A DNA stretch of 64,000 nucleotides. Origin: Spirochaetia bacterium (GTDB taxonomy: Bacteria > Spirochaetota > Spirochaetia > SZUA-6 > Bin103). This document shows positions 15,851 to 62,708 of the stretch, one piece after another (the stretch's first letter is position 1; the number at the start of each line of letters is the position of its first letter). Under the pieces are notes generated by a model. That model made no database searches. It was not told the DNA's origin and worked only from the letters and a program-made list of their open reading frames with translations. The DNA lies in NCBI GenBank assembly GCA_965198005.1, contig CBDAOI010000002.1:608001-672000 (forward strand), written 5' to 3'. Position numbers and translations under genes: made by a program.

Positions 15851-16066
15851 TTTCGTGGCCGGATGGGGTTTCGCTCCAGCGCTGCTAGGGCCCGGGTGCG
15901 GGACACGTGGGTTGGCGCGGGGCCGAGGCGGACTGTGGCGCTCCAAACGCTGGATATTTTTTGGCGCTCGCACCGCCTTACGTGACAGTTTGTGACCCCC
16001 GGGCCGCCGGTCCGGCCGCGCGGTATGCACGCCGGCGGCGGGCCGGCTACACTGGGCGGCGACGCG

Positions 16067-16930: not shown

Positions 16931-17024
16931 GGTCGCCGGGGTCGCACGGAACGCGCCCACACCGCCGGACCACCGGAGCGCACCGTTGACGCCGCCACGG
17001 CGAACGGGGTACCGTCGGTCCGTC

Positions 17025-17591: not shown

Positions 17592-17608
17592 TGCAGAGGG
17601 GCGCGCAA

Positions 17609-17681
17609 CGGGATGTAGCCCAGCGGCTAGGGCACCTGCTTTGGGAGCAGGAGATCGGAGGTTCGAGTCCTCTCATCCCGA
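17609..17681 (+). tRNA. tRNA-Pro(TGG)
   Basis: CGGGATG...CATCCCG-A cloverleaf, anticodon loop TTTGGGA. Confidence 0.95.
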
Positions 17682-17698
17682 TCCCGATTCTTGCCACT

Positions 17699-17772
17699 GC
17701 GTCCATAGCTCAGCCGGATAGAGCAGCAGCCTTCTAAGCTGCGGGTCGCGCGTTCGAGTCGCGCTGGACGCG
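17699..17772 (+). tRNA. tRNA-Arg(TCT)
   Basis: GCGTCCA...TGGACGC-G, loop CTTCTAA. Confidence 0.95.
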
Positions 17773-17845
17773 ACGCCCGGCGCGCGCGCGGCCGGCCGCC
17801 CCCGAAACCTGCCGCCCGGTCTCGCGCCGCGCCGGTCAGCCGGTG

Positions 17846-38687: not shown

Positions 38688-41600
38688 TTACTCCGAGTAT
38701 GGCGCGAGTCGGGTGACGCCCGCGACGACTAGCGAGTCGACGACTTCCTGCCAACCGTCCGAGTGGCCGGCGTTGACAGCGGTACCGCGAATCTCGATTA
38801 GCCAGTCCGGCAGCATGAAGCTGTGGGTGGCGGCGTGGGCAGGATCCGCGAGCGCAAGCTGAGCGACCCACGACAGCCCGGTACGGACTTGGGTCTCGGA
38901 GGCAAGGGCGCCGAGGAAGCTGATGAGGCGGTCGACACATCTGCCTCTGCCTTCAGCGACGCTCAGCCACGCCTCGACCTCGGCTTGCATATCGAGCGGT
39001 TCCCACCATGCGATCGGGTTGGCATGGACCTCGGGGTATAGAAATGAAACGTCGCCCGCGGCGTTGGGCAGGAGGGAGCCCAATGCCATGTCGCCGTACA
39101 GTCCGTCCCGAAACGGCGTATAGTCCGCGTTCGGCGCAAGCACGTGGCGAACGACACTCGGCCAGACCCGTCGAGCCGTGGCTGCCCTGTCCGGTGTTTC
39201 CTCCGCAGCCGCTGACAGAGCTCGCAGCAGGGTACCAAGCAAAGCCGGACTGTCGGCATAAGCGTCAATGTGCTCGTAGATGGCTGCATCGTCGCCATGT
39301 TCGGCCAACGTCAGCAGAGCGCGTGCGCTGACGAGAGTGTGGGAGCCGCGAAGATCCGCGTCGGGAAGACCGCGGCTGAGCAGCGATCGCCGCTGAGCGG
39401 CCAAGAGAGTCGACAGCAGATCGTGAGCTCGCGTAGACACGCAGATGTCGGCAACGGCTGCTGGCGCCAGCGCTCGAATCGCCGCGTCGAGACGAGACGC
39501 GAGGATCGAGTGATCGTCGGCGCTGGCAAGCGATTTGGCCATGGGCTCTTCCAGCGCGAGGGCAACTCTTCGTCCGGTGGCGCGGTCCCAACCGCCAAGC
39601 ACGCAACGGCGCATCGTTTGGGTAGCGAGACTCCAACCCACTTCGTGATGGCAACGCCCGTCCACCGCGCACGGCGTGTTCCAGACGCGATCCAAGCTAC
39701 GCGCAAGGTGGAGCCGCACCTCGTTCGATACAGCTTGAGCAAGATTGAGGCCTGCACGAGCGGCGCGCTCGAAGGCCACCCACCCATCTGCCTTGTCGAT
39801 GAGCGTGCGAAGTCGAGCGGCAATGGGCAGGAGCAACAACGGAAGCGCCCGGGCGGCGCTACGGTCGGCACCGTGCTCGTAGTAAGTGTCTTCGAACTCG
39901 AACTGCCGCGGCGACGCTTCGCCCTCGCCGACCCGCAACACGGTCTCGGCGGCGAAGGACAGCGCATCATCTTCGAGGTCAGCGCCATCAAGGAGGTGCG
40001 CTTCGAGTGCCGCCGCCGCAATCAACGCGGCTGTATCCCACGGATCATGCGCTACGAGGGACGGAGGGCTCTCAAGCAGATTCCGGGCGATGGCGATGTC
40101 GGCTGCCAATTCATCAGGTGCGATGGCCTGAGCGCCCTCCTTCTTGGGGTCGACGTGGTAGCGAACGAACAATCGCGTCGCCTCTTGGAAACGGTGCATC
40201 TCCTCATTGCTGGGTTCCAACGCCTGCAGCACATCGTCAGGTGGCGTGGGACTGATGTACAGGCCGTCCGAAGCCTCAAGAGCCTGATAGCTGTCGCGAT
40301 CAAGGCAACTTGCCCAGATACGAACCGGCATCAACGCCTTTTCGATGGACTCGCCAGCCGGAGCCTCCGACTCGGCGAGTTCGTGATCACGTGACGACAC
40401 GAAGTGGCGACGCGCGTTCGTGAGCAGTTTGTCGCCGATCGCGCGTAGCTCTGCGGCACGATTCTCGTCGGCTCGAACGCCCATGAACATGGCTGCCTCG
40501 CGTAGCGACCAGTTGCGGCGCTCCGATGCGACGAGGCCCTCGGAGTCGGCAGCGAAGCCGCTGCCCTCGTTTACGACTCGCGTGACGTCGATGCGCCAGA
40601 CAAACGGTTCAGCGAGGTAGGAGTCAAGCAGATCGCCTGCCCGCTCAAGGTGCCGTATCAGCAACCCTACTACAAGGCCGACCATGGCGAGGCTCTCACA
40701 TCCGTCGAGCAGTATCGAGACCACGGTCCTGAGCGGGATGTCAGTCTCGATCAGTTGGTCGCACACTCGCTCCAGCGCTTGTAATGCGCTGAGGCATGGA
40801 TATGGTCCGACTCCAGTTCCGCGGTACCAGCGCCAAACGTGCTCATCGCCGACGTAGCGTCGGTCCGCACCAGTGATCTCAAGCTCGGTCTCGGACAAAC
40901 GGACCGTCTCGTCGTTAGGGAGGGGACGCAAAGATCGGGGCGTCGCCATGGAACGGGCGCGATTGCGCGCGGCATGGTTGAGCAAACGATTGAGCACTGC
41001 AACGCCGTGGTGGAAGTCACTCTGGAAGAGCGGCTTGAACGGGCCGCGATACCACGTAGCGTGGGGGTGGCCGAAGCCTCGATTACGGTGGTCGCGGACC
41101 CCGTCGTCGAGATCAGTAGCGTCGGCCTCGTCATCAAGGTAGTACGCCTCGGTCAGATGCGCCAGAAGGCCACGGCCAAAGCTGGCCAGCGCGTTTCCCG
41201 TCAAGAGCTCCTCTACGGTAGGAGCGAGCCGGTGCGGCGCGTCGCGCGCGACACGGCGAAGTATAGCCTCACCGCGGTCGCCAAGGTCCGGACCGAGCAG
41301 AGCCAATAGTTCGAGAACCGTCTCGTCTGTGAGCTCATGGGGCACGTCCGGTCGTTGTCTGCGGCGCCGGCCGTCGTAGCCGATCTCCGCGAAGAGCTTG
41401 TGGTGCTCGGCGAGTCGGCGCGCCTTCTCGACACCCTTTGGCGTGCGGACAGCACCCTTATAGGCTTGGCCGAAGAGCCGACGAAGAGCGGAAAGGAGGA
41501 GCCCAAAGAGCGGCAGATTCCGCCGTTTTGGCCCCAGAGGCCTCTGTTCGGCTGGGCCTTGTGCAGGTTCGGCCTCCCGCTCCTTGGCAAGGCGACGGTC

Positions 41601-44000
41601 ACCCGCTGCGCACGCCTCAACCAGACGCTCGCGAAGCAGGATGCGGAGCGGATGCCCAGCGGGAGTCTTGGCAACCACATGTGCTTGTAACCAGTCCCGT
41701 AACAGGTTCTGGGCGTACTCACCGAAGCGCCATGGTGTTCCGTCCTCAAGCAGCAGCGTGATGATGGGCTCAACGGCGGCGAGGTTGACGATGCCGTTCT
41801 CGTCGCGGTGTCGCTGATCAACCAGACGGGCAAGCCGCCGCAGGCCCGCGGCGTCATCGGCAAGCAGACCGGGCCACGCTTCCCGGAGTAGCGCCTTGGG
41901 ATCGGCAGTCGAGAGCAGGGCTTCACCGGGCACGTCACCCCAGCGGGCGCAATGGCCTGCGTCGACGAGCCGGTCAAACGATGCCTGCAACACACCGAGC
42001 CTGCCGCTTATCGGAGTCCTGGTGGTGTCGGGCCGCCCCAACCATGCCTCACTCGCGAGTCGCGCTGCCGATAGCGACCAGCGCGGCGCGCCAGCTTGCT
42101 GAATTCTTGAAGCTGGGGTGTCGTCGGACAGCAGAAGTCTTGCGACCGCGTAGCGTCGCACCTCGTCGTGCGCGAACTCGGGACCGATCATGAACGGATC
42201 GTCCGGCGAAGTTCGCAGTAGTCCGTCGCCGCGCAAACCGCGGAGAACAGCGGGATCGATCTCCCTGATGACTCCGAAGCGTTCGCCGCCTGCGAGGTCG
42301 AGATCGGCGAATCGAAGGAGTGCCACATCCCGCGCGTCGGGATATCCTCTGTCGGACTTGCCGTGTCGGCGGACGAGCCCGCACCACACCTCTCGCATCG
42401 CATCTGCCTCCGTCAGCGGAACGCCGCGGACGCGGCCACGAACAAGCAGATCAGCCACGACAAGCCGGCGCAGGAGTTCTCGCGACCGTGCGTTGGAGTT
42501 GAGCTTGCTCAGCTCGGGGAAGGTCCGAACGATTACGTCTATCTCGCTGTCGGTCAGCGAGGCCACGGTATGGTCCGTGACATCGGTGCCGAAGCGCTTG
42601 GTGAGTATGTCTCGCACGACCTGGATGCTGTCGACCGAGGTAACCGCGATTACCCTCACGTCGCTTTCCTGAGCTGCGTCAACCATGTAGCGGAATGCGT
42701 CTTCCAGGCCTTCCGCCACGGCGTCTGCGCCGTCAACGATGAGCATGCGTTGCGGTGCACTCAGTTCGCCCAGAATTGGCGAGAGCGGGCAGCCCAAGAT
42801 GGCCTCAAACTCGACCGTCAGCTTGGGGATGTGGCGCAGGTTGATGCACAACGCCTGCAGGCTGTCCTGGTCAGCGGTGCACACAGCGGTGATGCCCAGG
42901 ACCGTGAGTGCGCTCTTGCCTACACCTGACTCCCCGCTTGCGACGACAGCCAGGGCGTCCCCCGCAGTTGCAACCAGCTTCGCGACCGCATCGCTTCGAT
43001 CGAGGCGTACGCGGCGACCGCCGCCACTTGCAGTGATCTCGTCGCGCACCGATGCAACCGCCCTGCAATGAAGATGTTCGAGCGTCTGCCAGCCCTGCTT
43101 GTGGCGTCGCGTCGTCGAGTCGAGCATTGCGTGCACGTCACGTCGCAACAGCTTGAGATCGACTCGCGCGGATTTCGGCGAATACTCACCGGCAAGGCCG
43201 ACGAGCCGATCGCGAAGTGCCGACGCTGCTGTGAGATCAGAACCCCGCGCTACCGATATCAGGCTGTTCGCTACGGCCGACCAGTCCGTCTCGTCCGGTG
43301 ACTCGATCCGCGGCATCAAGACGGCGAGCCGCGAGAGCAGCTCCCACGTGCGCCGCTCTACCAGCGCTACGTCGGCACAGGTCACGCCGAGGTCGTGCAG
43401 CGCACACTTCATGAGGGCCACGACTTGATCGAGCCTGCCGCGAACGGCAGCTTCGAACTTTCGTGGCGTGCGGACGAGATCGAAGAATCCGGACGCGTCC
43501 AGCTGGTCCTTGGCAAGGTCGGCCAGCCTCGCCAGTTGCTCGGCGTGTGATTGCGGTCCGGCAACAACGAGACCGAACCGGTGTTCCGGTCCGTCCGCTG
43601 ATGTGGTGAGCAAAGCACGGACGAATTGCCGGACAAGCTCTTGCGTCGACTGGTCACGCGGTACGAACCTCGGTGAACGCCGAATCCCGAGGGCGAGCAC
43701 CAGCGACGGCTGCCGATCTTCGGGGCGTGCTGCGTACACGACGAGATCGTCGACCGGGTGGTCCGGGGCCTGCTGGAACGCGACGCTCACCACGCGACGA
43801 CCGTCTCCGAGTTCGCTCGCACCATCGCCAACGAGTAAGTGAGCGAGGTACTGGACCGCTACCTTCCGCTCGAAGGTTACGCCGCCGGCGCCGCTAGCAT
43901 AGGGGCTCGTGGCGGCTGCCAACCCCACTGTAGCACTGCTGCCGCCACTATCCTGCGCCCCACTTGTCAACCCCGGGATAACTTCGCTCATTTCGATCAT
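38688..44000 (-). CDS. 1770-aa STAND-class NTPase (Avs-like) with N-terminal PD-(D/E)XK-like domain
   Basis: N-terminal SGAGGVTFE...VDDLVV; Walker A GESGVGKS; Walker B LIVDGAD; FAHDEVRRY winged-helix-like motif; long helical C-terminus. Confidence 0.75.
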   Translation of the reverse strand: MIEMSEVIPGLTSGAQDSGGSSATVGLAAATSPYASGAGGVTFERKVAVQYLAHLLVGDGASELGDGRRVVSVAFQQAPDHPVDDLVVYAARPEDRQPSLVLALGIRRSPRFVPRDQSTQELVRQFVRALLTTSADGPEHRFGLVVAGPQSHAEQLARLADLAKDQLDASGFFDLVRTPRKFEAAVRGRLDQVVALMKCALHDLGVTCADVALVERRTWELLSRLAVLMPRIESPDETDWSAVANSLISVARGSDLTAASALRDRLVGLAGEYSPKSARVDLKLLRRDVHAMLDSTTRRHKQGWQTLEHLHCRAVASVRDEITASGGGRRVRLDRSDAVAKLVATAGDALAVVASGESGVGKSALTVLGITAVCTADQDSLQALCINLRHIPKLTVEFEAILGCPLSPILGELSAPQRMLIVDGADAVAEGLEDAFRYMVDAAQESDVRVIAVTSVDSIQVVRDILTKRFGTDVTDHTVASLTDSEIDVIVRTFPELSKLNSNARSRELLRRLVVADLLVRGRVRGVPLTEADAMREVWCGLVRRHGKSDRGYPDARDVALLRFADLDLAGGERFGVIREIDPAVLRGLRGDGLLRTSPDDPFMIGPEFAHDEVRRYAVARLLLSDDTPASRIQQAGAPRWSLSAARLASEAWLGRPDTTRTPISGRLGVLQASFDRLVDAGHCARWGDVPGEALLSTADPKALLREAWPGLLADDAAGLRRLARLVDQRHRDENGIVNLAAVEPIITLLLEDGTPWRFGEYAQNLLRDWLQAHVVAKTPAGHPLRILLRERLVEACAAGDRRLAKEREAEPAQGPAEQRPLGPKRRNLPLFGLLLSALRRLFGQAYKGAVRTPKGVEKARRLAEHHKLFAEIGYDGRRRRQRPDVPHELTDETVLELLALLGPDLGDRGEAILRRVARDAPHRLAPTVEELLTGNALASFGRGLLAHLTEAYYLDDEADATDLDDGVRDHRNRGFGHPHATWYRGPFKPLFQSDFHHGVAVLNRLLNHAARNRARSMATPRSLRPLPNDETVRLSETELEITGADRRYVGDEHVWRWYRGTGVGPYPCLSALQALERVCDQLIETDIPLRTVVSILLDGCESLAMVGLVVGLLIRHLERAGDLLDSYLAEPFVWRIDVTRVVNEGSGFAADSEGLVASERRNWSLREAAMFMGVRADENRAAELRAIGDKLLTNARRHFVSSRDHELAESEAPAGESIEKALMPVRIWASCLDRDSYQALEASDGLYISPTPPDDVLQALEPSNEEMHRFQEATRLFVRYHVDPKKEGAQAIAPDELAADIAIARNLLESPPSLVAHDPWDTAALIAAAALEAHLLDGADLEDDALSFAAETVLRVGEGEASPRQFEFEDTYYEHGADRSAARALPLLLLPIAARLRTLIDKADGWVAFERAARAGLNLAQAVSNEVRLHLARSLDRVWNTPCAVDGRCHHEVGWSLATQTMRRCVLGGWDRATGRRVALALEEPMAKSLASADDHSILASRLDAAIRALAPAAVADICVSTRAHDLLSTLLAAQRRSLLSRGLPDADLRGSHTLVSARALLTLAEHGDDAAIYEHIDAYADSPALLGTLLRALSAAAEETPDRAATARRVWPSVVRHVLAPNADYTPFRDGLYGDMALGSLLPNAAGDVSFLYPEVHANPIAWWEPLDMQAEVEAWLSVAEGRGRCVDRLISFLGALASETQVRTGLSWVAQLALADPAHAATHSFMLPDWLIEIRGTAVNAGHSDGWQEVVDSLVVAGVTRLAPYSE

Positions 44001-46411
44001 CGCCGTCTCGATGCGGCAAGCTTGTTGCGCACGTCTTGCGCAACTTCCTGCACCTCACGTGATACGCGGGGATTCAGCCCCGACTCCTGCTGCAGCGCCG
44101 TTACCAGCGGGAGCAGAAGGTGAGCTGTGGGCGACGCTTGGATCTGCTCCAATGCGTATGCCGGTTCCAGGTGGGCGGAAAATCCGGTCACGGCGAGTGC
44201 AATCCGTGAAGGAAGATCGTCCCGTCCCGCAAGGATCATCAGCAGGGTATGGAGGTCCTGTGCGCAAGCGGCTTGGTCGACGTTCGATGAATCCATCTCC
44301 AGTAGCGCATTGCCCTTCAGTACCAATGCCCTCGCTACCTGGGCGATGACTTCCGGGGCTTCAGATGAACGATAGCGTCGCACAACGGCGTCACAGATCT
44401 CGAGAGCCTCCGCCAGCCGACCAAGGGCGGCAAGTATTACGCCCCGGTACACGAGCGCTGCCGCGACCTTGGCGTCGATTTTCGGGTTGTCGATTCCCGC
44501 GAACCGCTGCACCACATCGTCGAAGACATGCAGGGCATCCGCGTATCGGTGTTGCGCACTGAGAAACTGTCCCTTGTTCGCCAAGGCGTAGGCGACTGCC
44601 TCTGCGATCGCCGACACTGACGAATCGCCGAACTGCCTCACCACTCGGTCATAGACATCAAGCGCCTCGGCCGGTCGCTGCAGCTCACCGAGCAAAATAC
44701 CCTTGCTGACCAGCGCTCTGGCTGCCTGTTCGGCGCTGACGGTGCCACTCCCATATTGGGCCCCAACGTCGTCCAATGCCGCTATGGCCTCATCGGATCG
44801 ACCAACCCCGCGCAACGCGACTGCGCGGCAGAGCTGCGCTTCCGCACGATGCCCACTAATGTCTTCAGCCGTATTCTCTGCAAATCCGCTTATAACCTCC
44901 TCGTAAAGACCGAGCGACTCCTCACATCGATCAAGGTGGTAGAGGGCACGCGCCTTGTTCATCATCGGGACGGCGAGAAAAGCCATCGGGGCCGGAACGT
45001 CTTGTTGGTGAACAAGGGAGAGGAGTCGGTCGCAGAAGTGGACCGCTGCACGATAGTCGCCACGATCGAACGCGTCATTGGATTTCTTCATCGAGTCCGC
45101 GACGAACGCGGTCCCATTCGCCAGCATCTCCAATTCGTCGCGATAGTCCGCCAGATCTGGCAAGGCGAGGAACTGACTGAAGACTTCGACAAGAAACGTC
45201 TGGTTTCGTGGTCGGGTCAGTAAGGCGTCGACGATCATGGAGCCGGCGATCGACGACAATTCCGGTGCGGAGTAGAACGACGCCATGAATCGCAGCAGCG
45301 CCTCGACGACCCGGCCTGGGTCTCCCCGGCGCAGCAGGTAGTAGATGTTGTACATCCGCTCGACGAGGTAGTACTGCTTGCGGCGGGGGCTGCCGCCGTC
45401 GACCTCCACTGCCCGGCGTGCGATCAGGCGCTGGAGTTGGGCGCTGCACTGACTCGTGCCGATCCGCGCCTGGTCGGCTATTTCGCGTGTGGTGGCGGGT
45501 CTCCACAATTCTGCGAGCGCGACGAACACGCGCCGTTCCTGGTGTGGCAGATCCTCGATGTAGCGCTTGAAGTACTCGGTATGAGCGTCTACCAGATCGA
45601 AGAGATCCGACATGAGTGTCGGGAAGGAGAGCTTGCCACCGAAGCGAGCCACTATCGTCATCAGGCGCGGGCTGCCGCCGGTGAGTATCTGCAGCGATCG
45701 AATCTTGCCGTGATTGGCGCTTGCGCCGGACGCCGCCCGCCACAGCGTGGCGCACTCCCGCTCGTCCAGCGGGCGCAGCGTGATGATGCGGAACAGATCG
45801 TAAAGCGCATGTTCGGGATCGTCGATCTCGGCGAAGCGGCTCGTAGCGCTCCCCAGCAACATAATCCGCGGCTCGGTTTGCAGCGTCTTTCTTAGTTGCC
45901 AGCCGGCGTCGGGGTCCGACATTTCCCCGAGCAGCATGTTCAGATTCTCGACCACGAGCACCAGGCGTTTGCCTGCACGGTCGGCAGCGTCGAGTACGGC
46001 GGCGAGGCAACGCTGGGCGAGCGTCTGTTGGTCCTGGATGCGGTGCAGGTCGCAGTACGTGGCGTGCAGGTCGCGCTCTTCGTTCGCTCCGGACTCCTGA
46101 CCGGCCAGGCGGGCCAGACACTCCAACCAGAACTCCCCGCAGGTGCCGACCACGTAGCTCTCCTCGGAGAACACGACCGGCAACAGCCGGTCGGCCAGGC
46201 CGGCTTGGCGGCGTACCTCCAGCGCGACGCGGAGCAGCAGGCTCGTCTTACCGCTGCCGCGGGGGCCGATCACGATCAGGTGCTGGTTCGAGTTGCCGGT
46301 GTTCTCCTGCAGCGTCTCGACGATCGACTCGAATTCGCTCGTGCGCACGCAGAACGCCGCGGCCAGTTCGTCGTCGGTGAGAAAGCCGGGATTGTAGGTT
46401 CTGACAGCCAA
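43997..46411 (-). CDS. STAND/AAA ATPase with winged helix and TPR repeats
   Basis: AGGAGG + TTG; YNPGFL, GPRGSGKT, LVVENL, TGGSPR; repeated ALVxKG..L..L.R..EAL..YD TPR units. Confidence 0.85.
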   Translation of the reverse strand: MAVRTYNPGFLTDDELAAAFCVRTSEFESIVETLQENTGNSNQHLIVIGPRGSGKTSLLLRVALEVRRQAGLADRLLPVVFSEESYVVGTCGEFWLECLARLAGQESGANEERDLHATYCDLHRIQDQQTLAQRCLAAVLDAADRAGKRLVLVVENLNMLLGEMSDPDAGWQLRKTLQTEPRIMLLGSATSRFAEIDDPEHALYDLFRIITLRPLDERECATLWRAASGASANHGKIRSLQILTGGSPRLMTIVARFGGKLSFPTLMSDLFDLVDAHTEYFKRYIEDLPHQERRVFVALAELWRPATTREIADQARIGTSQCSAQLQRLIARRAVEVDGGSPRRKQYYLVERMYNIYYLLRRGDPGRVVEALLRFMASFYSAPELSSIAGSMIVDALLTRPRNQTFLVEVFSQFLALPDLADYRDELEMLANGTAFVADSMKKSNDAFDRGDYRAAVHFCDRLLSLVHQQDVPAPMAFLAVPMMNKARALYHLDRCEESLGLYEEVISGFAENTAEDISGHRAEAQLCRAVALRGVGRSDEAIAALDDVGAQYGSGTVSAEQAARALVSKGILLGELQRPAEALDVYDRVVRQFGDSSVSAIAEAVAYALANKGQFLSAQHRYADALHVFDDVVQRFAGIDNPKIDAKVAAALVYRGVILAALGRLAEALEICDAVVRRYRSSEAPEVIAQVARALVLKGNALLEMDSSNVDQAACAQDLHTLLMILAGRDDLPSRIALAVTGFSAHLEPAYALEQIQASPTAHLLLPLVTALQQESGLNPRVSREVQEVAQDVRNKLAASRRR

Positions 46412-46424
46412 ATGCCCGCGCCTC

Positions 46425-46743
46425 CTACGGCTCGCCCCGCGGCCTGCGGTCGGCAAATCGAGTGAAGTTCCGAGCGTAACGAGCACGCCACCAGTCCTCG
46501 ATCAGAGCATCCTGCGGGCTTCGGGCATCCTCCAGGTCGACGAACAGCGGCTCCACGTCTCCATCTGCAGCCAGACGGCGTAGCGTCTCGCGCACCAAGC
46601 TCGTCTTGCCCATCCGGCGCTGCGCGGTGAGCAACGTGTGTGCGCCGTCGCGGACCCGTTCGCTCAGCGCCTCTACCTCGGCCTCCCGGTCGAAGAAGCG
46701 GTCGCCATCAACCCAGTTGCCGCCAGCTTTCCTCAGGATGCAA
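46425..46743 (-). pseudogene. partner P-loop ATPase with a large internal deletion
   Basis: GNWVDGDRFFDREAE...AQRRMGKTSL...VDLEDARSPQDAL fused directly to C-terminal EDWWRARY; start codon out of frame. Confidence 0.75.
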
Positions 46744-46813
46744 CACCTCCAACAGCAGCGTTGGCAACAATATAGATGGCAACAAGATTGATGTCAAGCC
46801 CCCCTTCGGATGA

Positions 46814-48190
46814 TCAAGAGCGATTCGGAGCAACGTCATGTGTGCCAGATGAAGCGGAACGCACGCGCTCATCCAGGTCGGGTGGCGCCCGGAACAGATA
46901 GCTGCGCCGCCCGACGCGGCGGCGTTCGAGCAGGCCGAGGTCGGCCAATCTGAACAGGTCGGCGCGAGCGGTAGCGTAGGCGACCGAGTGACTGGTCAGG
47001 TGCGACCGGATCGTGTACTCGGCGTTGGGGTGGCGGACCGCGTGAGCAAGCAGGGCAAGCTGGCGATGGTTGAGGTCGGTCGAGCGCTTCAGAGTCTGTT
47101 CGACCTGTCGTACCTGTTCGATCTTCCTGGCGACGTACGACTCCACGCTGGCGATCGCGCGCAGCATCACGTTGAGCTGATGCACGATGAAGTAGGTCAG
47201 ATCGTTGTCGTCGGTCTCGGTGTACAGAAACGACCGCGCATATTGAGCGGGTGCGGCGGCAAGCACGCTGCTGATCGAGGCGAACTCGAACATCCGGTAT
47301 CCGTGGCGCAGCATCGCCCAGTAGAACAGGACGCGGGCGGTGCGTCCGTTGCCGTCGGCGAACGGGTGGTCGTAGGCGAGCCAGAAGTGGAGGATGACGG
47401 CATGGACGGCAGGATGCAGGAACGAACCGTCGCCAAGGCCGTCGTTGGCGAACTGAACCATCGCCCGCATCCGACCCGGCAATTCGTCTGTCGGGGGTGG
47501 GGAATGGAGCAGGGCTTGATCACGAGTGTCCCACACCTGTACGCGTTGGTCGTCGGGACGTTGCAGGCGACCGGCAGCGTCGGGGTCGTCGAGCGTGTCG
47601 GCGGCAATTATGGCATGCAGATTCAGCACCGCCGGTTCCGTCAGCGGCGCATCCTTCAGCCGGCGGATTGCTTCCATCGCGCGGTAGTTGTTGAAAATCA
47701 TCCACTCGCTCCGGTCCCGCGGCCGCCGTCCCGCGCGGATCATCTCCGCCGCCACGGCACGCGTGGTCGACGCGCCTTCAAGTTGACTGGAAGTGATTGC
47801 CTCCTGGATCAGAGAGTTGACGATGAACTGGTTGCGCGTGTCGGTGTTGGCCACGCCTTCCGCGGCGGCACCGATCCACCCATGGCTCTGGCTGTCGATG
47901 CGATGCAACGCCTCCTGAACCCGGTCGGGCAACAGGTACACGAACGGGCGTCCGCCGGCGTCCCGCAGTGGGAGCTTGCGATACAGCCCGGTGCGGGATA
48001 GCTTGAGCGCCAGCCACCACTCCTCCGGACTCCGTAGTCCTGCCGGAGTGGTAAGGTGACGTAGTGTGTCCCAGTGCAGGTAACGGTTATCAACCGTGGG
48101 GCCGAAACCTCGGCCAAACACCTCGTCAAGTCGCTCGCGATGCCGGACCAACAGCTCACTCAGCGACTTCGGTGTGCGCGGCAACTTCAT
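46814..48190 (-). CDS. Fic family protein with C-terminal winged helix
   Basis: HPFADGNGRTAR Fic motif; SSQLEG inhibitory-like motif. Confidence 0.92.
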   Translation of the reverse strand: MKLPRTPKSLSELLVRHRERLDEVFGRGFGPTVDNRYLHWDTLRHLTTPAGLRSPEEWWLALKLSRTGLYRKLPLRDAGGRPFVYLLPDRVQEALHRIDSQSHGWIGAAAEGVANTDTRNQFIVNSLIQEAITSSQLEGASTTRAVAAEMIRAGRRPRDRSEWMIFNNYRAMEAIRRLKDAPLTEPAVLNLHAIIAADTLDDPDAAGRLQRPDDQRVQVWDTRDQALLHSPPPTDELPGRMRAMVQFANDGLGDGSFLHPAVHAVILHFWLAYDHPFADGNGRTARVLFYWAMLRHGYRMFEFASISSVLAAAPAQYARSFLYTETDDNDLTYFIVHQLNVMLRAIASVESYVARKIEQVRQVEQTLKRSTDLNHRQLALLAHAVRHPNAEYTIRSHLTSHSVAYATARADLFRLADLGLLERRRVGRRSYLFRAPPDLDERVRSASSGTHDVAPNRS

Positions 48191-48292
48191 AACTATCAAT
48201 ATGCACAAAATTGATAGTACCGGACAGGGCTCCATCAGAGAATATCAACCTGTCAAGTATTGATAGGTGTGCTGCTCCGGCGCGTCACTGTT

Positions 48293-48497
48293 CACGGAGT
48301 GTTCGGCGGCGGTCTGGCGATCGCGGTGCTCTATCTATTCCTGCGCCGCCTGCGCAGCACCGTGGTGGTTGGGTTGGCGATCCCCATCTCGGTAATCGCC
48401 AGCTTCTTTCTCATGTACCTGGGGGGTGTCTCGCTCAACATCATGTCGCTCGGCGGGCTGGCGCTCGGGATCGGCATGCTGGTGGACAGCTCGATCG
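48293..48497 (+). pseudogene. RND efflux permease (AcrB-like) internal fragment
   Basis: [11 protein letters not shown]...AIPISVI...[22 protein letters not shown]. Confidence 0.85.
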
Positions 48498-48534
48498 CCC
48501 CGCCGAGCGGCGCGCGGCACGGCAGTGAGGCTCC

Positions 48535-49686
48535 TCATCTGCGAAGGTGCCAGCGGCGGGCGCGGCGGCGGGGGCCGCGGCGGCGGCCGGGGGCGGCGGT
48601 ACGCTGCGGGAGGGGGCGGCCGCGGAGGTGACGCTGGTAGAGGCGGCAGGCGTGGTAGTAGGGCTCGGGGCTGGCGAAGCTGGCGAGCATGTCGGCGCGG
48701 TAGAGTTCCAGCAGGTCGGGGAACAGGTCGGAGCTCATCAGCTCCTCGGCGTGCTCGGGGCGCACGCGCCCGAGGGCAGCCGGGATCATGTGGTTGCGCC
48801 CGAGGAACGCCACCGCGTCGATCAGCCGCGGTGTGAAGCCGAGCCGGGTCAGGAAGCGGCGCGCCACCCGGGCACCGATCTCGGCGTGAGCGAAGAACCG
48901 CTTGTCACCCTGCGGTACCGCCTGCGGCTTGCCCACGTCGTGCAGCAGCAGGCCGAGCGACAGCAACAGATCGGGCGTCTTGCGGTGGGCGAAGGTGGCC
49001 AGCGTGTGCTCCCACACGTCGCCCTCCGGGTGGAACTCCTTGGCGTGCGGAACGTTGGCCATCGCCGCCAGCTCCGGCCACCAGCTCTCCACGATGCCGG
49101 TCTCGTACAGCAACCGCAGCCCCTTCTCCGGCGCGCGGCTGGTCAGGATCTGTTCCAGCAGGTGGCGCTGATACTCGGCCGACACCGGCGGCGCTTCCGC
49201 CTTGATCGGCGCCGAGTCGGGGGTGAAGGCGAAGTGGTAGCGGGAGGTGAGCTGCGCGGCCTCGGCGGTCACCTGCCACCATTCCAGGCCGGCAGGGCGG
49301 CGCACCAGCTCCGGTTTGCGCAGGTCGTAGTAGACCGCGTCCGGATCGAGGAACACGTCCCGACGCGGGTCGAAGCGGAGCTGCTGGACGGTAAACGGAT
49401 AGCCGGTCACCCCACCGCTGTCGCCGCAGCGCACCCACAGCCGCGTGCCGCGGTGCAGCGCCATTGCGTCGACCAGCGGACCGCCGCCGAACTGCAGTTC
49501 GTCCACCAGCGGCGCGATCTCGGCCACCGTGGCGTCAGCGACTATGTGCAGCAACCGCTCACCGTAGTACTCCGGCACCCGGAAGTAGCGATCGAGCGCC
49601 GAATAACTGACCAAGTCGGCGCTGACTCCCGCGTCGTCAAAAGGCGCGAGAACACTGGATGGACTCTCAACGCTCAGACTGGACAC
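48535..49686 (-). CDS. HD-domain protein related to tRNA nucleotidyltransferase/poly(A) polymerase
   Basis: [25 protein letters not shown]; nucleotidyltransferase head looks degenerate. Confidence 0.75.
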
Positions 49687-49695
49687 TGTTCCGGC

Positions 49696-51960
49696 TCAGT
49701 TCCCAAAGCTCTCCAAGAAGCTCTCGAAGCGGCCGGCGGCTCGCTCTATCGACTCTTGCACCGCAAGGAGCGACACCCCCAGCCGATAGCGCTTCTGAGT
49801 GCCTGATCCCTTGTAGTCGGCTCGCTTTACCACGCTGCAGTCCTCAAGAGCTGGTAACACCTGCTTCGAAAACAAAGTCCAGTCCCTGCCCATGCGCTGC
49901 CTGAACGTGTTTTCGTTAACTCCTGTCGAGCGAAAGAACGCCCGGCACATCCGCTCCGTCAAGACCAGCCGAGCGTCCGGCTCGACCACCTCGATGGCTT
50001 CCTGCTCAAGTTCAGCCGCAGGTGTCGAGATGTCGAACCCGGCGTTCTTCAAGACTCTGAAGATCGTCGCAGGGGCGAAAATCGCCGCTCCTTGTGTCGA
50101 TTGAACTACGGCTAACACTTCGCAGTCGTGCAGACGCGATCGATCAACCCGATTCACTTCTGCCAAGTCGATCCGGCCGAATTGGCAGCGTTCAAAGAGA
50201 CAGTTGTCGATTGTCGATTCAGCAAGTTCGGTGCTCTGGAAGTAGCAGTCGTGGAACACCGCGCCAACTATGTGTCTCTTGCGCAATGAATTTACCGGAA
50301 ATGACATGCGCCTGGCGACAACACCTTCAGCGTCTAGAGCGTCAAGGATGCGCACCAACAGAGCCCCGGAGTTGTCCTTGACGAAAGACGCGTAGGGCTC
50401 AGGCGCACATGCGGCATTGAGAGTCTCTGCCAACTTGCGGAGTGGATGCTCATCGCGCGCCAGCCTGCGCTTGGCAACATCGACGGTCAATTCAGGAAAC
50501 CGTGCAATTCGGAATACGCGACGAAGTTCCGGCAGATCCCCCCTTCCCACAAGACGCGCAACTGATTCGCCGAGGAAGTAATGATAGAATTCATCGTGAC
50601 CGAATCCAAATGCCGTACCGCGCCCAGACGCCGATATGAGCGCATGCTGCCGAATACGATGCTTGATCTGCTTTGTGACCGGCGCGTCCATACGCTGATC
50701 TTCGACGTACAGCTCGGCCACATAGTCGAACACATCCGATGCCAGCATCGCTGTTTCGCTGAGCCACATCTCCGAGGCGATCTCGGCCAGGAGTTCGCAG
50801 TGTTGTCGCTCAGAGAGAAGGGGGTGTGCAACTGCTCCCGAACGATCGATCCACTTGTCGCGCGCCTCGCGGGAAATGATCGACTCGACAAATCGCTCGA
50901 AGTAGAGCTCTCCGTCCCCACCAATCTTCTCGATCAGATCGTCCCGTCCGGCGCTATCGGAAGCGACGTCCATCAGGCGCCGGACGAGCACCGGACGAGT
51001 GAGCAGCGGATGCGACTGATCATGGAGTTTGGCGGCCACCTGAGAGAACAATTCAGACCCGCCTGGGATACCTCGTTTCGCGGCATATTCGGCAAACCGG
51101 TCGCGGTCCCATTTTGACAGATGGATTCGTGCAAAATCCGCACGCTGGCCTTGGAAAGAATCGACCAGCGGAGCTTGTGTACGCAGATCCTTGTATTCGA
51201 AGTATGCGCTCCGGGCGGCAATGAGAATAGTCCCTCGGGAGTCGAGCAGGTTCATGAGATTACCGAGTGCGGTTACCGCGTCGCCCGCTTGGCTCTCCAC
51301 GAACATCTCTTCGAAACCATCCAGAGCGGGCACGATAGCCCCCTTCCTGACCATCCACACCAGTGCGTCATAGTAGAAGAACGGGAACCGCAGCCGATTG
51401 ACCAGGGTTCCGGTGAATACGTCGTCAAAACGGAGGAAGGGACGTCCGCCAAGCGCGATAGGCACCAGAAGCCAGTCGGTTGTCTTTTCCTTGTACCGTT
51501 GCGCTTGTTGTCGCGCAAGGTGATGGATCAGGGTCGTCTTTCCTTCTCCCGCGTCGCAGGTCAGATACACGCCGGTAGAGATTCCGGCCGGCCGCTCGTC
51601 GAGAAGCTCGAGGATGGGAGTAGTCACGGAGTCTACACTCGTTTCCACGTCATCGGGAGACCTGTCCATGCGGTCAAGTTTCTTGCCGGCGGGCTCGATG
51701 AAGTGAGGCTCCTCGGGTATGTATGAGAGGATTCTGTCGGCAAGAATCGGCAGTCTAGCGATCCGTTGGAAGATCCAATCCTCTGCCCTCTGGCTGGTGC
51801 CGTTCTCGTCTACCCAGAGGCCGTCGACACGCTCCGTAACCCTGGATTGTATGAGATCGTCTCTGATTTCGACAAGAAGCTCGCCATGCTCAATGTCTAC
51901 ATCGGCTGGTTTGTCAGCGAACGCTGTGAGGATGCTTCTGAATTCGTTAGTGTCCATCAT
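49696..51960 (-). CDS. NACHT/STAND NTPase with C-terminal pentapeptide repeats
   Basis: Walker A DAGEGKTT, Walker B LDGFEEM, LLTRPVL, FGFGHDEFYHYF, pentapeptide-like AVFHDCYFQSTELAESTIDNCLFERCQF. Confidence 0.8.
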   Translation of the reverse strand: MMDTNEFRSILTAFADKPADVDIEHGELLVEIRDDLIQSRVTERVDGLWVDENGTSQRAEDWIFQRIARLPILADRILSYIPEEPHFIEPAGKKLDRMDRSPDDVETSVDSVTTPILELLDERPAGISTGVYLTCDAGEGKTTLIHHLARQQAQRYKEKTTDWLLVPIALGGRPFLRFDDVFTGTLVNRLRFPFFYYDALVWMVRKGAIVPALDGFEEMFVESQAGDAVTALGNLMNLLDSRGTILIAARSAYFEYKDLRTQAPLVDSFQGQRADFARIHLSKWDRDRFAEYAAKRGIPGGSELFSQVAAKLHDQSHPLLTRPVLVRRLMDVASDSAGRDDLIEKIGGDGELYFERFVESIISREARDKWIDRSGAVAHPLLSERQHCELLAEIASEMWLSETAMLASDVFDYVAELYVEDQRMDAPVTKQIKHRIRQHALISASGRGTAFGFGHDEFYHYFLGESVARLVGRGDLPELRRVFRIARFPELTVDVAKRRLARDEHPLRKLAETLNAACAPEPYASFVKDNSGALLVRILDALDAEGVVARRMSFPVNSLRKRHIVGAVFHDCYFQSTELAESTIDNCLFERCQFGRIDLAEVNRVDRSRLHDCEVLAVVQSTQGAAIFAPATIFRVLKNAGFDISTPAAELEQEAIEVVEPDARLVLTERMCRAFFRSTGVNENTFRQRMGRDWTLFSKQVLPALEDCSVVKRADYKGSGTQKRYRLGVSLLAVQESIERAAGRFESFLESFGN

Positions 51961-52676
51961 GTAACTCGCGGCAAGAGGCTAAGCTCTACGTAATTGGCCC
52001 TGCCGCCCCGCCGGTAATCGGGCCTTGTGCTGTGTCCCGCCACCGTATGTACATGGACGACACCGACACCGAACTGGAGCGCAGTATTGATCGCAGGCCA
52101 CAGGTCGTCGTCGGAGGATACGACGGCAATCTGCTCGGCGTTCGCATATACGTTGAAGAACACGTCAGCGGACAGCATCGTATCGACGAGCTTCTGTTCG
52201 CGACGCCGGACAATAAGCCTGCTCGTCACTGGGCAACTCTGCTCGGGGCACTCTCCTCGCACGAAGAAGTCAAAGCTCGGACGAAGCGGGCAACTACCGG
52301 CCAGTTGGCAGCCGGCCACTGTTGGATCCGTGAATTCGAGCCAGCGCGGGGCCGTCTTCGATCGTAACGTGTACACTATGTGGTGCGCCGGATCACACCG
52401 CATGCTGTAGGCAAGTTCGACGTTCACCATGAGCGCGCGCCGATCGTCGTTCAACGGGACCAGTGTCGGGCCGGGCAGTTCCCTCTCCATCTGTTGCGCA
52501 TCGCGCGTAGGAGAAGTCTCCTCGTACCACCCGCCGTAGAATCGGAGGTCCACTCGGCGTTCGCGTGCAGCTATGTAGTTGGGAACGATTGCCGACATGA
52601 TCCGGTTTATGAGGTAGGCGATGCCCTTGCGACGTTCTTGCTGCGGAATGTTGTAGTAGTCGACCAGAACGTCCAT
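51957..52676 (-). CDS. NYN (PIN-like) domain ribonuclease with Cys4 insertion
   Basis: VLVDYYN, EQKLVDTML, VVSSDDDLWPA acidic motifs; CQLAGSC...CPEQSC insert. Confidence 0.75.
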   Translation of the reverse strand: MDVLVDYYNIPQQERRKGIAYLINRIMSAIVPNYIAARERRVDLRFYGGWYEETSPTRDAQQMERELPGPTLVPLNDDRRALMVNVELAYSMRCDPAHHIVYTLRSKTAPRWLEFTDPTVAGCQLAGSCPLRPSFDFFVRGECPEQSCPVTSRLIVRRREQKLVDTMLSADVFFNVYANAEQIAVVSSDDDLWPAINTALQFGVGVVHVHTVAGHSTRPDYRRGGRANYVELSLLPRVT

Positions 52677-52696: not shown

Positions 52697-53272
52697 CTAG
52701 CCGGTTTCGGCCGATACGACTTCGATCTCGGGGTTTACTTCGTCGCGGAGCACGCTCTGGACGGCCTGCAGGGTGCCCGACACCGAGGCCGGGCAGGTTC
52801 CGCAGGCGCCGACGTAGCTCACCACGACGCGGTTGTTCTCGTAGGCCAGCACGTCCAGGTCGCCGCCGTCGCCCTGCAGGTAGGGGCGCACGGTGCGGTC
52901 CAGCACCTCCTCGATGCGCTGCACCTCGGGCGGCTGGTCGTCGCGCACGTGGCTCACCGGCCCGCCGCTGCCGGCAGCGGCAATCTCGAAGCCGGGATCG
53001 TGCTCCTCGACGTGGTTGGTCAGCACCTGCTTGACCCAATCGGCCACGTCCTCCCACGGCGCCTCGGCGATCTTGGTCACCGTCACCACGTTCTCGAACA
53101 GATGCACCTGCTCCACCACCACCAGGGCAAACAGCGCCTCCACCAGCGGGATGCCTTTCGCCTCCTCGGTGCTGCGGAAGGTCACCTTGCCGGTGGACTT
53201 CACGTCGCGGTTGAGGATGAACTTCATCGCGTCCGGGTTGGGGGTGAATTGGGTCAGTATTGCCACGCCCAT
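52697..53272 (-). CDS. NifU/Nfu family Fe-S carrier (Nfu_N + NifU-C)
   Basis: TPNPDAMKF, VRPYLQGDGGD, GACGTCP. Confidence 0.92.
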   Translation of the reverse strand: MGVAILTQFTPNPDAMKFILNRDVKSTGKVTFRSTEEAKGIPLVEALFALVVVEQVHLFENVVTVTKIAEAPWEDVADWVKQVLTNHVEEHDPGFEIAAAGSGGPVSHVRDDQPPEVQRIEEVLDRTVRPYLQGDGGDLDVLAYENNRVVVSYVGACGTCPASVSGTLQAVQSVLRDEVNPEIEVVSAETG

Positions 53273-59502: not shown

Positions 59503-59563
59503 GAAGTATATGCCCACCACCACCACGGAGTCAACAGGTTGGTGGCCTAGAGCGGTCGCAGGT

Positions 59564-62500
59564 TCATAGCTCCAGAATGTCCTTGAGGGTCCGGCTTGGC
59601 AACTGGCCCGTGGGAAGCGGGGACTCCGGCGGTTTGAATAGCGGATTGCCGGGCGACCACAGCTCTACGCTTTCGGCGTGCTCCTCGTAGTAGGCGGGAT
59701 CGGTGGTGACGCGCACCGGTTCGGTCATTCCTGGAGCCCGCAGGCCGTATTCGCGGTGTCTCAGCGGTTGTATCTCGGTGCCCGTGGGCAACAGGTCGGA
59801 AGAAGCGATTACCCGATCGAGGTCGTTCATGGTGATCGGCGATGGGGGCCGCTCCGGTATGGTGAGATCGTCGGTCAGTACGGCGTCGATATCGAAGCCG
59901 GCGTCGGCTGCGACGCAGGCGTTCTATCTTAGCGACGAGGTCGGCACTACCCTCGCCCTGGCGCGTGGACTCGGGTAGCACGGCTCTGGTGATGGCCTGC
60001 GGCAGCTCGGCCAGGATCGGTTGCAGGTGCCCGACCACGGTCTCGAACAAGCCGATGCGGGTTCTGAGAGCACGGTATACGTCGGTCTCGACGGTGCCGT
60101 CGTAGTGCAGGTTGACGATGCGTATGGTGGCGTGGGTCTGACCGACACGGTCGATGCGACCGATCCGTTGCTCGACCCGCATCGGGTTCCACGGCATGTC
60201 GTAGTTGATCACCGCTCCACAGAACTGGAAGTTCAGTCCCTCGGCGGCGGCGTCGGTGCAGAGCAGGACGTCGGCCTCGGTCGCACGAGTCAATGATGCG
60301 CCACGTACCGTCCGCGGACGAAATCTCTCCACCACGGCCCGAGAAACACATCAGGCGCCTGCTGCCACCGGTACCCAGTTGGTCACGCAGGAAGTCCATC
60401 GTGTCGGTGTATTGGGTGAACACCATCACCTGCTGGTAACCGTCGCAGTGCAACTCGGCCAGGGTCTCCCGCAGGCGCTCGCACTTGCTGTCCGCCGGCA
60501 ACATCCGGACGCGGGCGAGTAGATGCTCGATGTCTGCCCGTTCCTCGGCGGCCAAGGCTTGCCGCTCGCGCTCCGCAACCTCATCGGCGTCGACGGCTCA
60601 TCTGCCGTTTCGTCATCCGGCGCATCTTCGTCGAGACCGGACACGAACGGGTCGGCGCCTCTCCTGATCATCGCAAGATGCCGCTCCAGGGTCGTACGCA
60701 GCGCCTGAAAACTGCTGGCAAGCCTGCGCCGATAGATCGTCATCACGAACCCGACCGCCGACCGCTCCGTGGCCGTTGCCTGATTCCAAGTTCCGGCGAT
60801 ATAGGCCTCCACTGCCGCATAGAGTTCCCGCTCGTCCGCGGTCATCTCGATGAAACGATCATCGACCTGTCGTTGCGCGATCGGGGTCGAGAGCATGCCG
60901 GCGTCGAAGTAGCGGCGCAGCAACGCGCGCGTATGGCGTGAGATCAGGTGCCGGATCGGCGTATGCGTACGCAGGATTTCCAGGGCAGCACGCCGCTCCG
61001 GAGTCGCCAGCCGCCGGCGCGGAATGCCCGCCTCGTCGCGCAGGGCACGCAGCACCTTGCTGGTCTTCAGCCGCGACAGACCGGTGAGACGAGCCGCGTC
61101 CTCCGGGTCGGCGGCGCCATATGCCCGTTCGACCGCCTGGAACATCCACGCCATGCGGTCCAGCGCCTCCGGCGGCGGGTTCGGCTGCGCAACATCGTCG
61201 AAGAAGCGGAGAAACGCCTCGTCCGTCCATTCCGGCGGCAACCCCAGCAGGCTCAGCAGATCCCATACTTCGACGGGATGCACCTGCATCGGGGTGGCGG
61301 TCAGCAATACGAGCCCCTCGGTACGCTCCATGAGTTCCCGCATCAGGCGCAACAAGGCGTTCGCGCCGCCCTCGCGGGCTGAACCTGCCGCGCGCCGGCG
61401 GGCATGATGAGCCTCGTCGAGCACGACCAGATCCCACGGCTGAGCGTCCTGCAGGAGTTCGGACGCCCGATCACGGCGCCGCAGCAGGTGGCTGGACGCG
61501 ATCACCACCGGTTCGCGGTGCCACTCCCGGGGGTCGACCTCGCGCTCGTAAGCCTCGCGCAGAGCGGGCGAGCGATACCACGACAGTTTGCGGCCGTCGT
61601 AGATCGGCCAGTTGAGATTGAATTTCTCGCGCAGCTCGATCTGCCACTGCCGCAGCACCGCCTTTGGAGCCAGGATCAGAATTCGCCGCGCCCGCCCGGC
61701 AAGCCACGCTTGCCGCAGCAGCATACCCGCCTGGATGGTCTTCCCGAGACCCACCTCGTCGGCGATCAGAAGTTTCGGCGGCCACTGCGCATACAGACGT
61801 TCGAATGCCCGCACCTGATGCGGCCAGGGCGTCACGGCGGCCGTTGCTTCCCCGACACGGGACCCGTAGCTCTGTGCAGGCGCCTCGCGGATGAACGTCC
61901 AAACCAGACCCCGCCGATCGACCGCCGGCTTCACAGCGGCAGGATCGAGTGCCGGAGTCCTGGGTTGTGCGCCCGGCACATGATCACCGAGGCTCGACTC
62001 CTGCGCCTTCAGGCGCGCGGGCAAATCGTACTCAGGCATGAACCGCATCAGATCGCGGCGCACCGCCTCGGGGACGTCGAGCACGATCACCCGTCCGGAG
62101 CGACCGGCCCAGAGCCGCGCGAAGTTTCCTTCTTCGTGCGTGACGCGTTCCGGCTCCGTTCCCCAACTGGTATAGACGTTGATGCTCTCCCAGTTGTGGC
62201 GCCAGCCGGCCGGGGTTTCGTTCAAGCTCCCATTCCAGGCGATCCGGTGACCGCCATGGTCCTGGATGATGCCCGCTTTCTCATGAAAGATTCCGTCGCT
62301 CGGGATCGGCGTGCGGTCGGCGGCGCACGGGACCGCCACCTTCACCGAGAGATGGCCGCCCGCGATCATCCAGGAGAGCAGTTCGAGGGCGCCGGCCGCC
62401 ACCGCATCAACAGGAGTGAGCGGTGCCGCGCACAGGTGCCGCTCTACCGTATCGCGCAGCCTCTCACCGCGTTCGATGGCCGCGATCTCCGCCTCTTCGA

Positions 62501-62708
62501 GGGTGCAGCCGACGACCAGCCGCATATGGCCGGCGTTACCCACCAGACCTTCGATGCCGCGCGCCGCCAGGGCCAGCGCACCTGCACTGAAGTAACCGGT
62601 AAGCCGGTCGTAGCGTACGGCGTCCTGCAGTGCCGGCTCGTAGAACAGGCGAACCAAGTCACCGTCGTCGGGGGTGTATTTAAGCTTCCACGTGCGATCG
62701 GTGAGCAT
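59564..62708 (-). pseudogene. PLD nuclease-SNF2 helicase fusion, with about three frame breaks in the 3' third
   Basis: GYFS, FHEKAGI...GSLNET (PLD); ADEVGLGKT, LDEAHH, LTATP, FTQYTDT, EGLNFQ, WNPMRVEQRIGRIDR spread across ORFs 60426..62708, 59947..60555, 59547..60335 and 59564..59830. Confidence 0.85.

Follow-up and report, generated by a model that had tools for sequence, protein, structure and literature searches.

We have identified a conserved two-gene unit in a 64,000-nucleotide stretch of DNA from a Spirochaetia bacterium (contig CBDAOI010000002.1, positions 608,001 to 672,000 of the forward strand), which we call the window and number from its first letter. The unit consists of a NYN nuclease gene and a NACHT NTPase gene, both on the minus strand, between nfu and a gene with an HD domain. 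The pair is real, widespread and apparently unnamed, and we consider it quite probable that it is a two-gene system acting against phages or other mobile elements. The NACHT protein is most likely the sensor and switch, and the NYN protein the effector. As for the whole mechanism, we lean slightly towards a bacterial NOD-like receptor (NLR) with its effector on a separate protein, in which the NYN nuclease would be gated by the NACHT switch and the two genes would be translationally coupled. The genes are placed as follows.

51957..52676, minus strand: NYN (PIN-like) nuclease gene, 239 amino acids
49696..51960, minus strand: NACHT (STAND) NTPase gene, 754 amino acids
51957..51960, minus strand: ATGA stop/start overlap of the NYN and NTPase genes

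The longest open reading frame (ORF) in the NYN frame begins further upstream, at 53057. We placed the NYN start at 52676 because homologues of 231-250 amino acids align from residue 1.

The two genes travel together. In protein searches, 1074 of 8000 scored candidates were NTPase relatives and 212 of 568 were NYN relatives, and a profile search gave 1260 NYN-like clusters at 50% identity, 357 of these at E<=1e-30. Loci were taken from species genomes (the best 80 of 149 NTPase loci) and from metagenomes (the best 80 of 129 NYN loci). The titles of the genome loci name Spirochaetia, Planctomycetota, Acidobacteriota, Bacteroidota, Proteobacteria, Cyanobacteria and others, and NYN adjoins the NTPase in 78 of the 80; one miss begins at the NTPase gene (L060) and the other is without NYN (L061). 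In the metagenomes, the NTPase lies downstream of NYN in 75 of 80 loci, while four loci end within 150 bases and one (L092) has 190 bases without a match. Conserved adjacency, which the original prediction had proposed as a check, was found in both collections. Across 142 homologous loci the gap between the genes ranges from -20 to +26 bp, mostly from -4 to +13, and 38 of 45 well-supported splits in the NYN tree recur in the NTPase tree.

The pair comprises at least four subfamilies. In 40 relatives, all eight distant or weak NTPase matches have a NYN-like match directly upstream. Six intact distant pairs form two further subfamilies, which keep the gene order and the NTPase layout and have no four-cysteine insert in NYN. 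When viral contigs were scanned with these two subfamilies, three more loci were obtained, two of which form a fourth group. For one distant pair (L261), the NTPase aligns with the window family over 572 columns (probability 99.3) and the NYN protein over 52 columns only (probability 90.5). Full-length copies were found in 4 of the 40 relatives and in none of 300 genomes drawn across the phylum, and the distribution of the pair is patchy and mobile.

Some loci have unusual arrangements. At L029 (9037-12256), one of the 78 loci with adjacent genes, NYN is inverted relative to the NTPase, and the pair lies between AAA ATPase and GmrSD/HEPN genes. At L023, a second, distant NYN-NACHT pair (14827-17785, minus strand) lies 2.5 kb from the first and faces it. 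The relative G012 carries three different subfamilies in one genome (L218, L219, L225), and G009 carries two. In G011 (L229, 1562-10186), at least five short ORFs starting with a near-identical 'ALTDTDLQ' are scattered around an ordinary NYN gene. Five NYN relatives (P0174, P0231, P0283, P0291, P0330) have 319-396 amino acids, mostly with an extra N-terminal 80-110 residues, either an extension or a start miscall.

The structure model of the NYN protein (predicted local distance difference test, pLDDT, 93.5) has a PIN-like fold. Its best match is the NYN domain of MARF1 (Z 12.1, root-mean-square deviation 3.2, 137 residues aligned), followed by VPA0982 (Z 10.6) and a next row at 8.1; Foldseek alone gave nothing at E<=0.001 with this model. 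The Pfam match of the window protein is under the curated cut-off (E 0.0097; PF01936, 16.9 bits with 24.2 needed), and many NYN relatives carry a precomputed PF01936 match. The NYN/PIN acidic residues were said to be kept, and this holds across 108 non-redundant pairs, the set used for all residue conservation given here: D6, D165, D189 and D191, the putative active site, are 96, 100, 100 and 100% conserved. We regard the protein as a putative metal-dependent RNase, with RNA as the presumed substrate and DNA as a possible one. The four-cysteine insert described earlier is present and nearly invariant (C123, C129, C143 and C148: 100, 100, 99 and 87%), but it is limited to the window's subfamily.

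NYN residues about 108-158: four-cysteine putative zinc-binding insert, window's subfamily only
NYN residues 55-61, 69-72, 80-98 and 177-179: predicted NTPase-binding surface, from the complex model

The NTPase is built from a small N-terminal alpha/beta domain, a nucleotide-binding domain (NBD), a first helical domain (HD1), a winged-helix domain (WHD), a second helical domain (HD2), a short beta-helix and a basic, winged-helix-like tail.

51721..51960, minus strand: N-terminal domain, residues 1-80; F-A-D motif conserved in all subfamilies
50551..51720, minus strand: NACHT core, residues 81-470; Walker A DAGEGKT 136-142, Walker B DGFEE 214-218, R250, WHD motif F453-H455
50326..50550, minus strand: HD2 helical domain, residues 471-545
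50116..50325, minus strand: pentapeptide beta-helix, residues 546-615; about 13 repeats, net charge 0
49699..49980, minus strand: C-terminal winged-helix-like domain, residues 661-754; net charge +5, conserved Arg, G-x-G hairpin

The best Foldseek matches of its model (pLDDT 86.5) are NLRC4 and NOD2 (E 5e-12 to 6e-11), with NLRP3 also among the top matches, and the model also matches a pentapeptide protein (Z 9.9, root-mean-square deviation 2.2, 92 aligned) in a region that covers residues 546-615. All Pfam matches of the window protein are under the curated cut-offs (NACHT, E 0.039; Pentapeptide_4, E 6e-4). For PF05729 it scores 14.2 bits against a cut-off of 26.7, which the relatives at L023 and L259 exceed. 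Walker A GEGK, Walker B DGFEE and R250 are 99-100% conserved. The predicted fold, with NBD, HD1, WHD and HD2, and these motifs place the protein among the STAND NTPases of the NACHT clade. The NACHT and pentapeptide-repeat assignment of the original prediction was thereby confirmed by the structure models in spite of the sub-threshold Pfam matches.

The N-terminal domain, described before as unrecognised, matched no known family in profile searches, with nothing below E 0.5 in a profile search against PDB sequences; its entropy of 1.91 puts it among the better conserved parts, compared with 2.41 for the beta-helix. The winged-helix label of the tail fits the predicted secondary structure, but no search confirmed such a fold, and a profile search against PDB sequences again gave nothing below E 0.5. 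In the ESM Atlas, the C-terminal part had no usable match, and the matches of the N-terminal domain scored 0.81 or less only. The beta-helix has sequence similarity to MfpA and Qnr (E 3e-6 to 2e-3). Its net charge is 0 in the window with a family median of -2, and its sequence has drifted off the pentapeptide pattern in other subfamilies.

Complex modelling supports a predicted direct binding of the two proteins, at WHD-HD2 rather than at the N-terminus. The model of the complex, built for the window's subfamily, reached a score of 0.63 (0.63, 0.54 and 0.65 in the individual runs), compared with 0.00 for the best control; this mark was attained by 116 of the 157 solved complexes and by 2 of the 215 mismatched pairs used for calibration. 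The runs have at least 90% of contacts in common, with a partner pLDDT of at least 81. The NYN family has no sequence relative of solved structure, which makes it less likely that the model passed by memorisation. Confident contacts on the NTPase are predicted at residues 196-197 (NBD edge), 397-417 (WHD), and 480-486 and 520-526 (HD2); the N-terminal domain takes no part in them, and on the NYN side the catalytic aspartates are likewise absent. Well-conserved contact residues are P70 (99%) and P96 (94%) of NYN, and S525 (96%) and E397 (87%) of the NTPase.

The genomic context points to defence. For the 80 genome loci, we classified the two nearest called genes on each side, giving 280 genes at 77 loci (234 cluster representatives, first 480 residues). 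The control consisted of 142 genes in 19 windows picked arbitrarily from related genomes, all of a single bacterial family. Restriction-modification, McrBC, GmrSD, Gabija-like, TIR, SIR2, DarT, DUF499 and DUF4420 families were counted as defence. Fic, PIN and toxin-antitoxin genes, lone AAA/SMC ATPases, HNH, TatD, RelA/SpoT, DACNV and D12 methylases were kept out as ambiguous. The enrichment near defence genes that was to be looked for appeared, as 39 of the 280 neighbours (22 of 77 loci) are defence genes, compared with 1 of 142 control genes (1 of 19 windows); with the D12 methylases added, the counts are 40/280 and 2/142. At two loci (L071, L078) the pair is lodged between hsdS and hsdR, and at L088 it lies directly behind pglZ-brxL of BREX.

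The pair is also carried by phages. The NTPase was found on eight viral contigs, seven of them with a NYN-like gene upstream, and the neighbours include tail, terminase-portal, integrase and filamentous-phage genes. The window's subfamily is on five viral contigs, among tail, portal and integrase genes; of these, one apparently represents the L069 locus again, another begins with the NTPase, and in a third NYN is broken. A distant pair lies between the terminase and portal genes of a tailed phage (L259, 4352-7211), and another is cargo of a filamentous prophage of Pseudomonas aeruginosa (L261, 4345-7148), with an inovirus coat gene and an excisionase-like helix-turn-helix gene nearby. The proteins of the latter are annotated as 'hypothetical' or 'ATP-binding' in P. 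aeruginosa, and the exact proteins occur on 274 and 157 contigs, so that this member is found in many sequenced genomes of the species. The pair lies on the far side of a 90-residue gene, which we take to be the Pf repressor. Pf4 accessory genes and the KKP toxin-antitoxin genes of Pf6 are listed next to the Pf repressor (PMC12328805).

As for prior naming, no full-length match to a system in PADLOC or NCBIfam was found for the proteins searched. The window proteins have no match in PADLOC-DB 2.0.0 and only short pentapeptide matches in NCBIfam 20. Family members searched against PADLOC (30 and 11 proteins) and NCBIfam (16 and 11, and 91 NYN relatives) gave weak partial matches only. No description of a NYN-NACHT pair was found in the literature searched, with most subscription papers and bioRxiv supplements lying outside the search, and the accessible parts of PMC8195603, PMC10853773, PMC10910872, PMC12035536, PMC12328805, PMC13092281 and PMC11564622 contain no gene link of this kind.

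Bacterial NACHT proteins are established anti-phage proteins, and in the bacterial NACHT (bNACHT) class the effectors are fused, operons are rare and the gene typically stands alone (10.1101/2022.07.19.500537). The window NTPase shares with this class the NACHT module with an NLR fold and the mobile, patchy occurrence. Its beta-helix (546-615) and terminal domain provide a C-terminal repeat and a small domain with a putative sensing role, as in the 'hybrid' sensor class, and pentapeptide repeats are among the bNACHT sensors (10.1101/2022.07.19.500537). The difference is that the nuclease is a separate gene, linked in 78 of 80 loci and modelled on WHD-HD2; the 80-residue N-terminal domain, at the place of a fused effector, matches no family in sequence searches. 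Based on the fold and motifs of the NTPase, we expect that the system should work like a bacterial NLR.

KpAvs2 with Avap1 and Avap2 is similar in that a STAND NTPase in a conserved operon has a partner that is bound before infection. However, KpAvs2 has its own fused nuclease, and Avap2 has no known activity and occurs with about 5% of Avs2 homologues (PMC11564622), whereas the NYN partner is the only recognisable enzyme here and is present at nearly all loci. KpAvs2-Avap2 thus sets a precedent for the bound partner, though none for an enzyme on a protein of its own. No tetratricopeptide repeats (TPRs), fused enzyme or Avs profile match were found in the window NTPase. HEC-09 has a MARF1-like NYN fold with conserved aspartates, but is a single-gene NYN without a NACHT partner (10.1101/2024.01.29.577857); six relatives gave weak partial PADLOC matches to it (E 6e-6 to 3e-3, 40-57 residues) and the window NYN gave none. 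In DS-8, a metallophosphatase-NACHT protein, NACHT is required for defence, but it is one fused protein (PMC13092281), and the best match here has E 0.0036 and 15 bits against a cut-off of 790. DS-5 has two genes and a PIN RNase that depends on its partner and is not toxic alone, but the partner is not an NTPase (PMC13092281). MfpA, Qnr and HalA of Hailong have the same beta-helix fold as the C-terminal repeat, but the matches cover 35-66 residues, far below the family cut-offs, and the window beta-helix has few repeats and no net charge. The title of the HalA entry describes a complex with oligodeoxyadenylate, and the fold can therefore occur in a ligand-bound defence protein.

We propose the following mechanism. 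The NYN and NACHT proteins would form a complex before infection, in which NYN would dock on WHD and HD2 and touch the NBD at residues 196-197. In characterised NLRs, the WHD-HD2 region rearranges on ADP-to-ATP exchange. A phage product would bind the C-terminal beta-helix and the basic winged-helix tail and flip the switch, which would release or cluster NYN, and the freed or clustered NYN would cut RNA and abort the infection. The sensing region, and activation rather than neutralisation, are parts of this mechanism that we infer. The original prediction held that the NTPase senses a phage DNA-binding protein through a DNA-mimicking beta-helix and activates a separate RNase. A conserved unnamed module, a NACHT switch and a separate NYN partner agree with it, but the sensing by DNA mimicry is not supported. 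DNA-mimic pentapeptide proteins have a longer and acidic beta-helix, and the window protein has about 13 pentapeptides with a net charge of 0. Given a short, uncharged beta-helix and a basic tail in which arginines are conserved, it is at least as plausible that the C-terminus binds a nucleic acid or a protein.

The position of the pair behind the suf operon was considered in terms of the history of the site.

52697..53272, minus strand: nfu, final suf operon gene; host flank outside the system
48535..49686, minus strand: HD-domain gene (CCA-adding/GlnD-like HD region); host flank, adjoining nfu in relatives without the insert

Read from the sequence, the NYN start is 20 bp past the nfu stop (52697), and the NTPase end is 9 bp ahead of the GTG start of the HD gene (49686). 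The guanine-plus-cytosine content (GC) of the pair is 0.56-0.61, compared with 0.65-0.81 for the suf operon and 0.66 for the genome, and the pair is under its flanks in GC in 69 of 72 loci. The coordinates, spacings and GC of the two co-oriented, overlapping genes, as first described, were all reproduced. Among the best 80 genome loci, the suf context occurs in two, both titled Spirochaetia; they are the same two places met among the relatives and are counted once. In 23 relatives, both flanks were found in 19, where nfu and the HD gene are adjacent in 14, separated by other cargo in three and by the pair in two. The three with other cargo (L210-L212 in G005, G006 and G007) carry an oppositely oriented three-gene cassette, presumably a GntR-like regulator, a membrane protein and an ABC ATPase. 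In the empty site of G010 (L214, 831-915), a scar of the NTPase 3' end survives with 19 of 21 bases, against at most 16 in 30 shuffles, and G010 has therefore lost the pair. The host tree places G000 with G003 (support 88/90), but the NTPase tree places it with G009 (100/100), far away from G003, which suggests allele replacement at an old site. As the suf link is limited to one genus and the site is often empty, we consider it local history.

Among the alternatives, a toxin-antitoxin logic, in which NYN is a constitutive toxin held inactive by NACHT and freed by NTPase loss or a phage trigger so that it defends or merely addicts the host, is unlikely in our judgment. Coupled translation, predicted direct binding and prophage carriage agree with it, as does the imbalance in breakage: of 160 loci, 8 have an intact NTPase with NYN damaged or missing, and 3 show the reverse. 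NYN is one third of the length, and its more frequent breakage also fits, weakly in view of assembly errors and loose thresholds, NYN as the costly part. However, the predicted contacts exclude the catalytic aspartates, and the invariant Walker motifs indicate an active switch. At three loci (L044, L135, L157), NYN looks intact although the NTPase next to it is broken, which, assembly errors being possible, weakly fits activation better than neutralisation. We hold a reversal of roles to be still less likely. In that case the NTPase would be the effector, through N-terminal oligomerisation or nucleic-acid binding by its tail, and NYN an accessory subunit, in the way that Avap2 accompanies KpAvs2, with a role in regulating the NTPase or in processing a ligand. 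The N-terminal domain is indeed better conserved than the beta-helix and outside the confident NYN interface, and Avap2, which binds KpAvs2, is required for defence, with the nuclease residing in KpAvs2 itself (PMC11564622). Against this, no catalytic family was found for the N-terminal domain, and the catalytic residues of NYN are nearly invariant.

A non-immune module for RNA processing or stress signalling would suit the ordinary genes around most loci and the age of the site within the genus; it is made improbable by the patchy presence, the low GC, the allele replacement, the carriage on prophages and the copies embedded in restriction operons. The least probable of the readings weighed here is that the beta-helix is a decoy for phage DNA-binding proteins in a module under Rrf2/Fe-S stress control. 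It draws on the similarity to MfpA and Qnr, and on the co-orientation with suf without a terminator-like site between the suf operon and the pair in the window genome, where read-through is possible. But the beta-helix is short, neutral and degenerate in other subfamilies, and the rarity of the suf context and the frequently empty site do not sustain Rrf2/Fe-S control as a feature of the system. Upstream co-orientation, at 77 of 111 loci, is no higher than the background of 735 of 1027. We also rejected family-wide hitch-hiking on host operons, since a co-oriented gene lies within 100 bp in 26 of 111 loci compared with 420 of 1027 in the background, and a promoter-like match inside the NTPase gene, which is at chance level (1 found, 0.8 expected).

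Several observations weigh against reading the pair as a defence system with a bound effector. No recognised defence gene is among the two nearest genes on each side at 55 of 77 loci, and the flanks of the window pair itself are housekeeping genes. The Fisher p-values for the enrichment (8e-7 by gene, 0.04 by locus) overstate its significance because the control comes from one family and genes of one operon are not independent. The queries tried gave no match in 72,556 plasmids, 50,697 phage records and 20,395 E. coli records, the last scanned with DNA queries. HEC-09, the one NYN-only candidate found tested in print, gave no protection (10.1101/2024.01.29.577857). The calibration of the complex score holds only roughly, the complex having been folded with custom alignments, and the model covers the window's subfamily only. 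Many predicted interface residues are poorly conserved, and the interface does not stand out in mutual information (block mean z 0.01; effective depth 85); modelling favours direct binding, but covariation between the proteins gives it no support. Two sponge metatranscriptome runs contain little of the stretch, with coverage of the pair in scattered bins only, while two further runs cover all bins and, among the joints shown, none skips the pair; this coverage neither demonstrates nor rules out expression.

Other genes of the window are also of note. Just beyond the HD gene (38688-48235, minus strand) are three defence-like genes, for a Fic protein (PADLOC SoFic, E 2e-37), an 829-residue STAND-like ATPase with TPRs and a 1770-residue protein that matches Avs4 weakly (E 1.7e-5, well under the cut-off). 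Between the HD and Fic genes (48260-48631, minus strand), a short stretch, probably a gene remnant, has a translation similar to a transmembrane piece of an RND efflux permease. A PLD-SNF2 helicase gene (59547-62708, minus strand; PADLOC PbeA, E 8e-69) looks frameshifted, as its C-terminal helicase motifs run on in two other frames (59947-60555 and 59547-60335).

In summary, NACHT anti-phage proteins are already known, and what is probably new here is a bacterial NLR variant with its effector on a separate protein; the bacterial NLRs described in the accessible parts of the cited papers carry the effector in the same chain. Tentatively, and with rather less than even confidence, we propose a widespread class of bacterial NLRs in which the effector is neither fused nor recruited N-terminally, but is a NYN subunit on WHD-HD2 of the resting switch, gated by conformational change, in at least four subfamilies including one in P. 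aeruginosa filamentous prophages. If this is true, the output of NLRs would be wired differently, with the nuclease forming a subunit of its own that docks on the switch's regulatory part, and NYN nucleases would gain a defined role in bacterial immunity. The P. aeruginosa member, being carried in a filamentous prophage, would also bear on strain differences in phage sensitivity.

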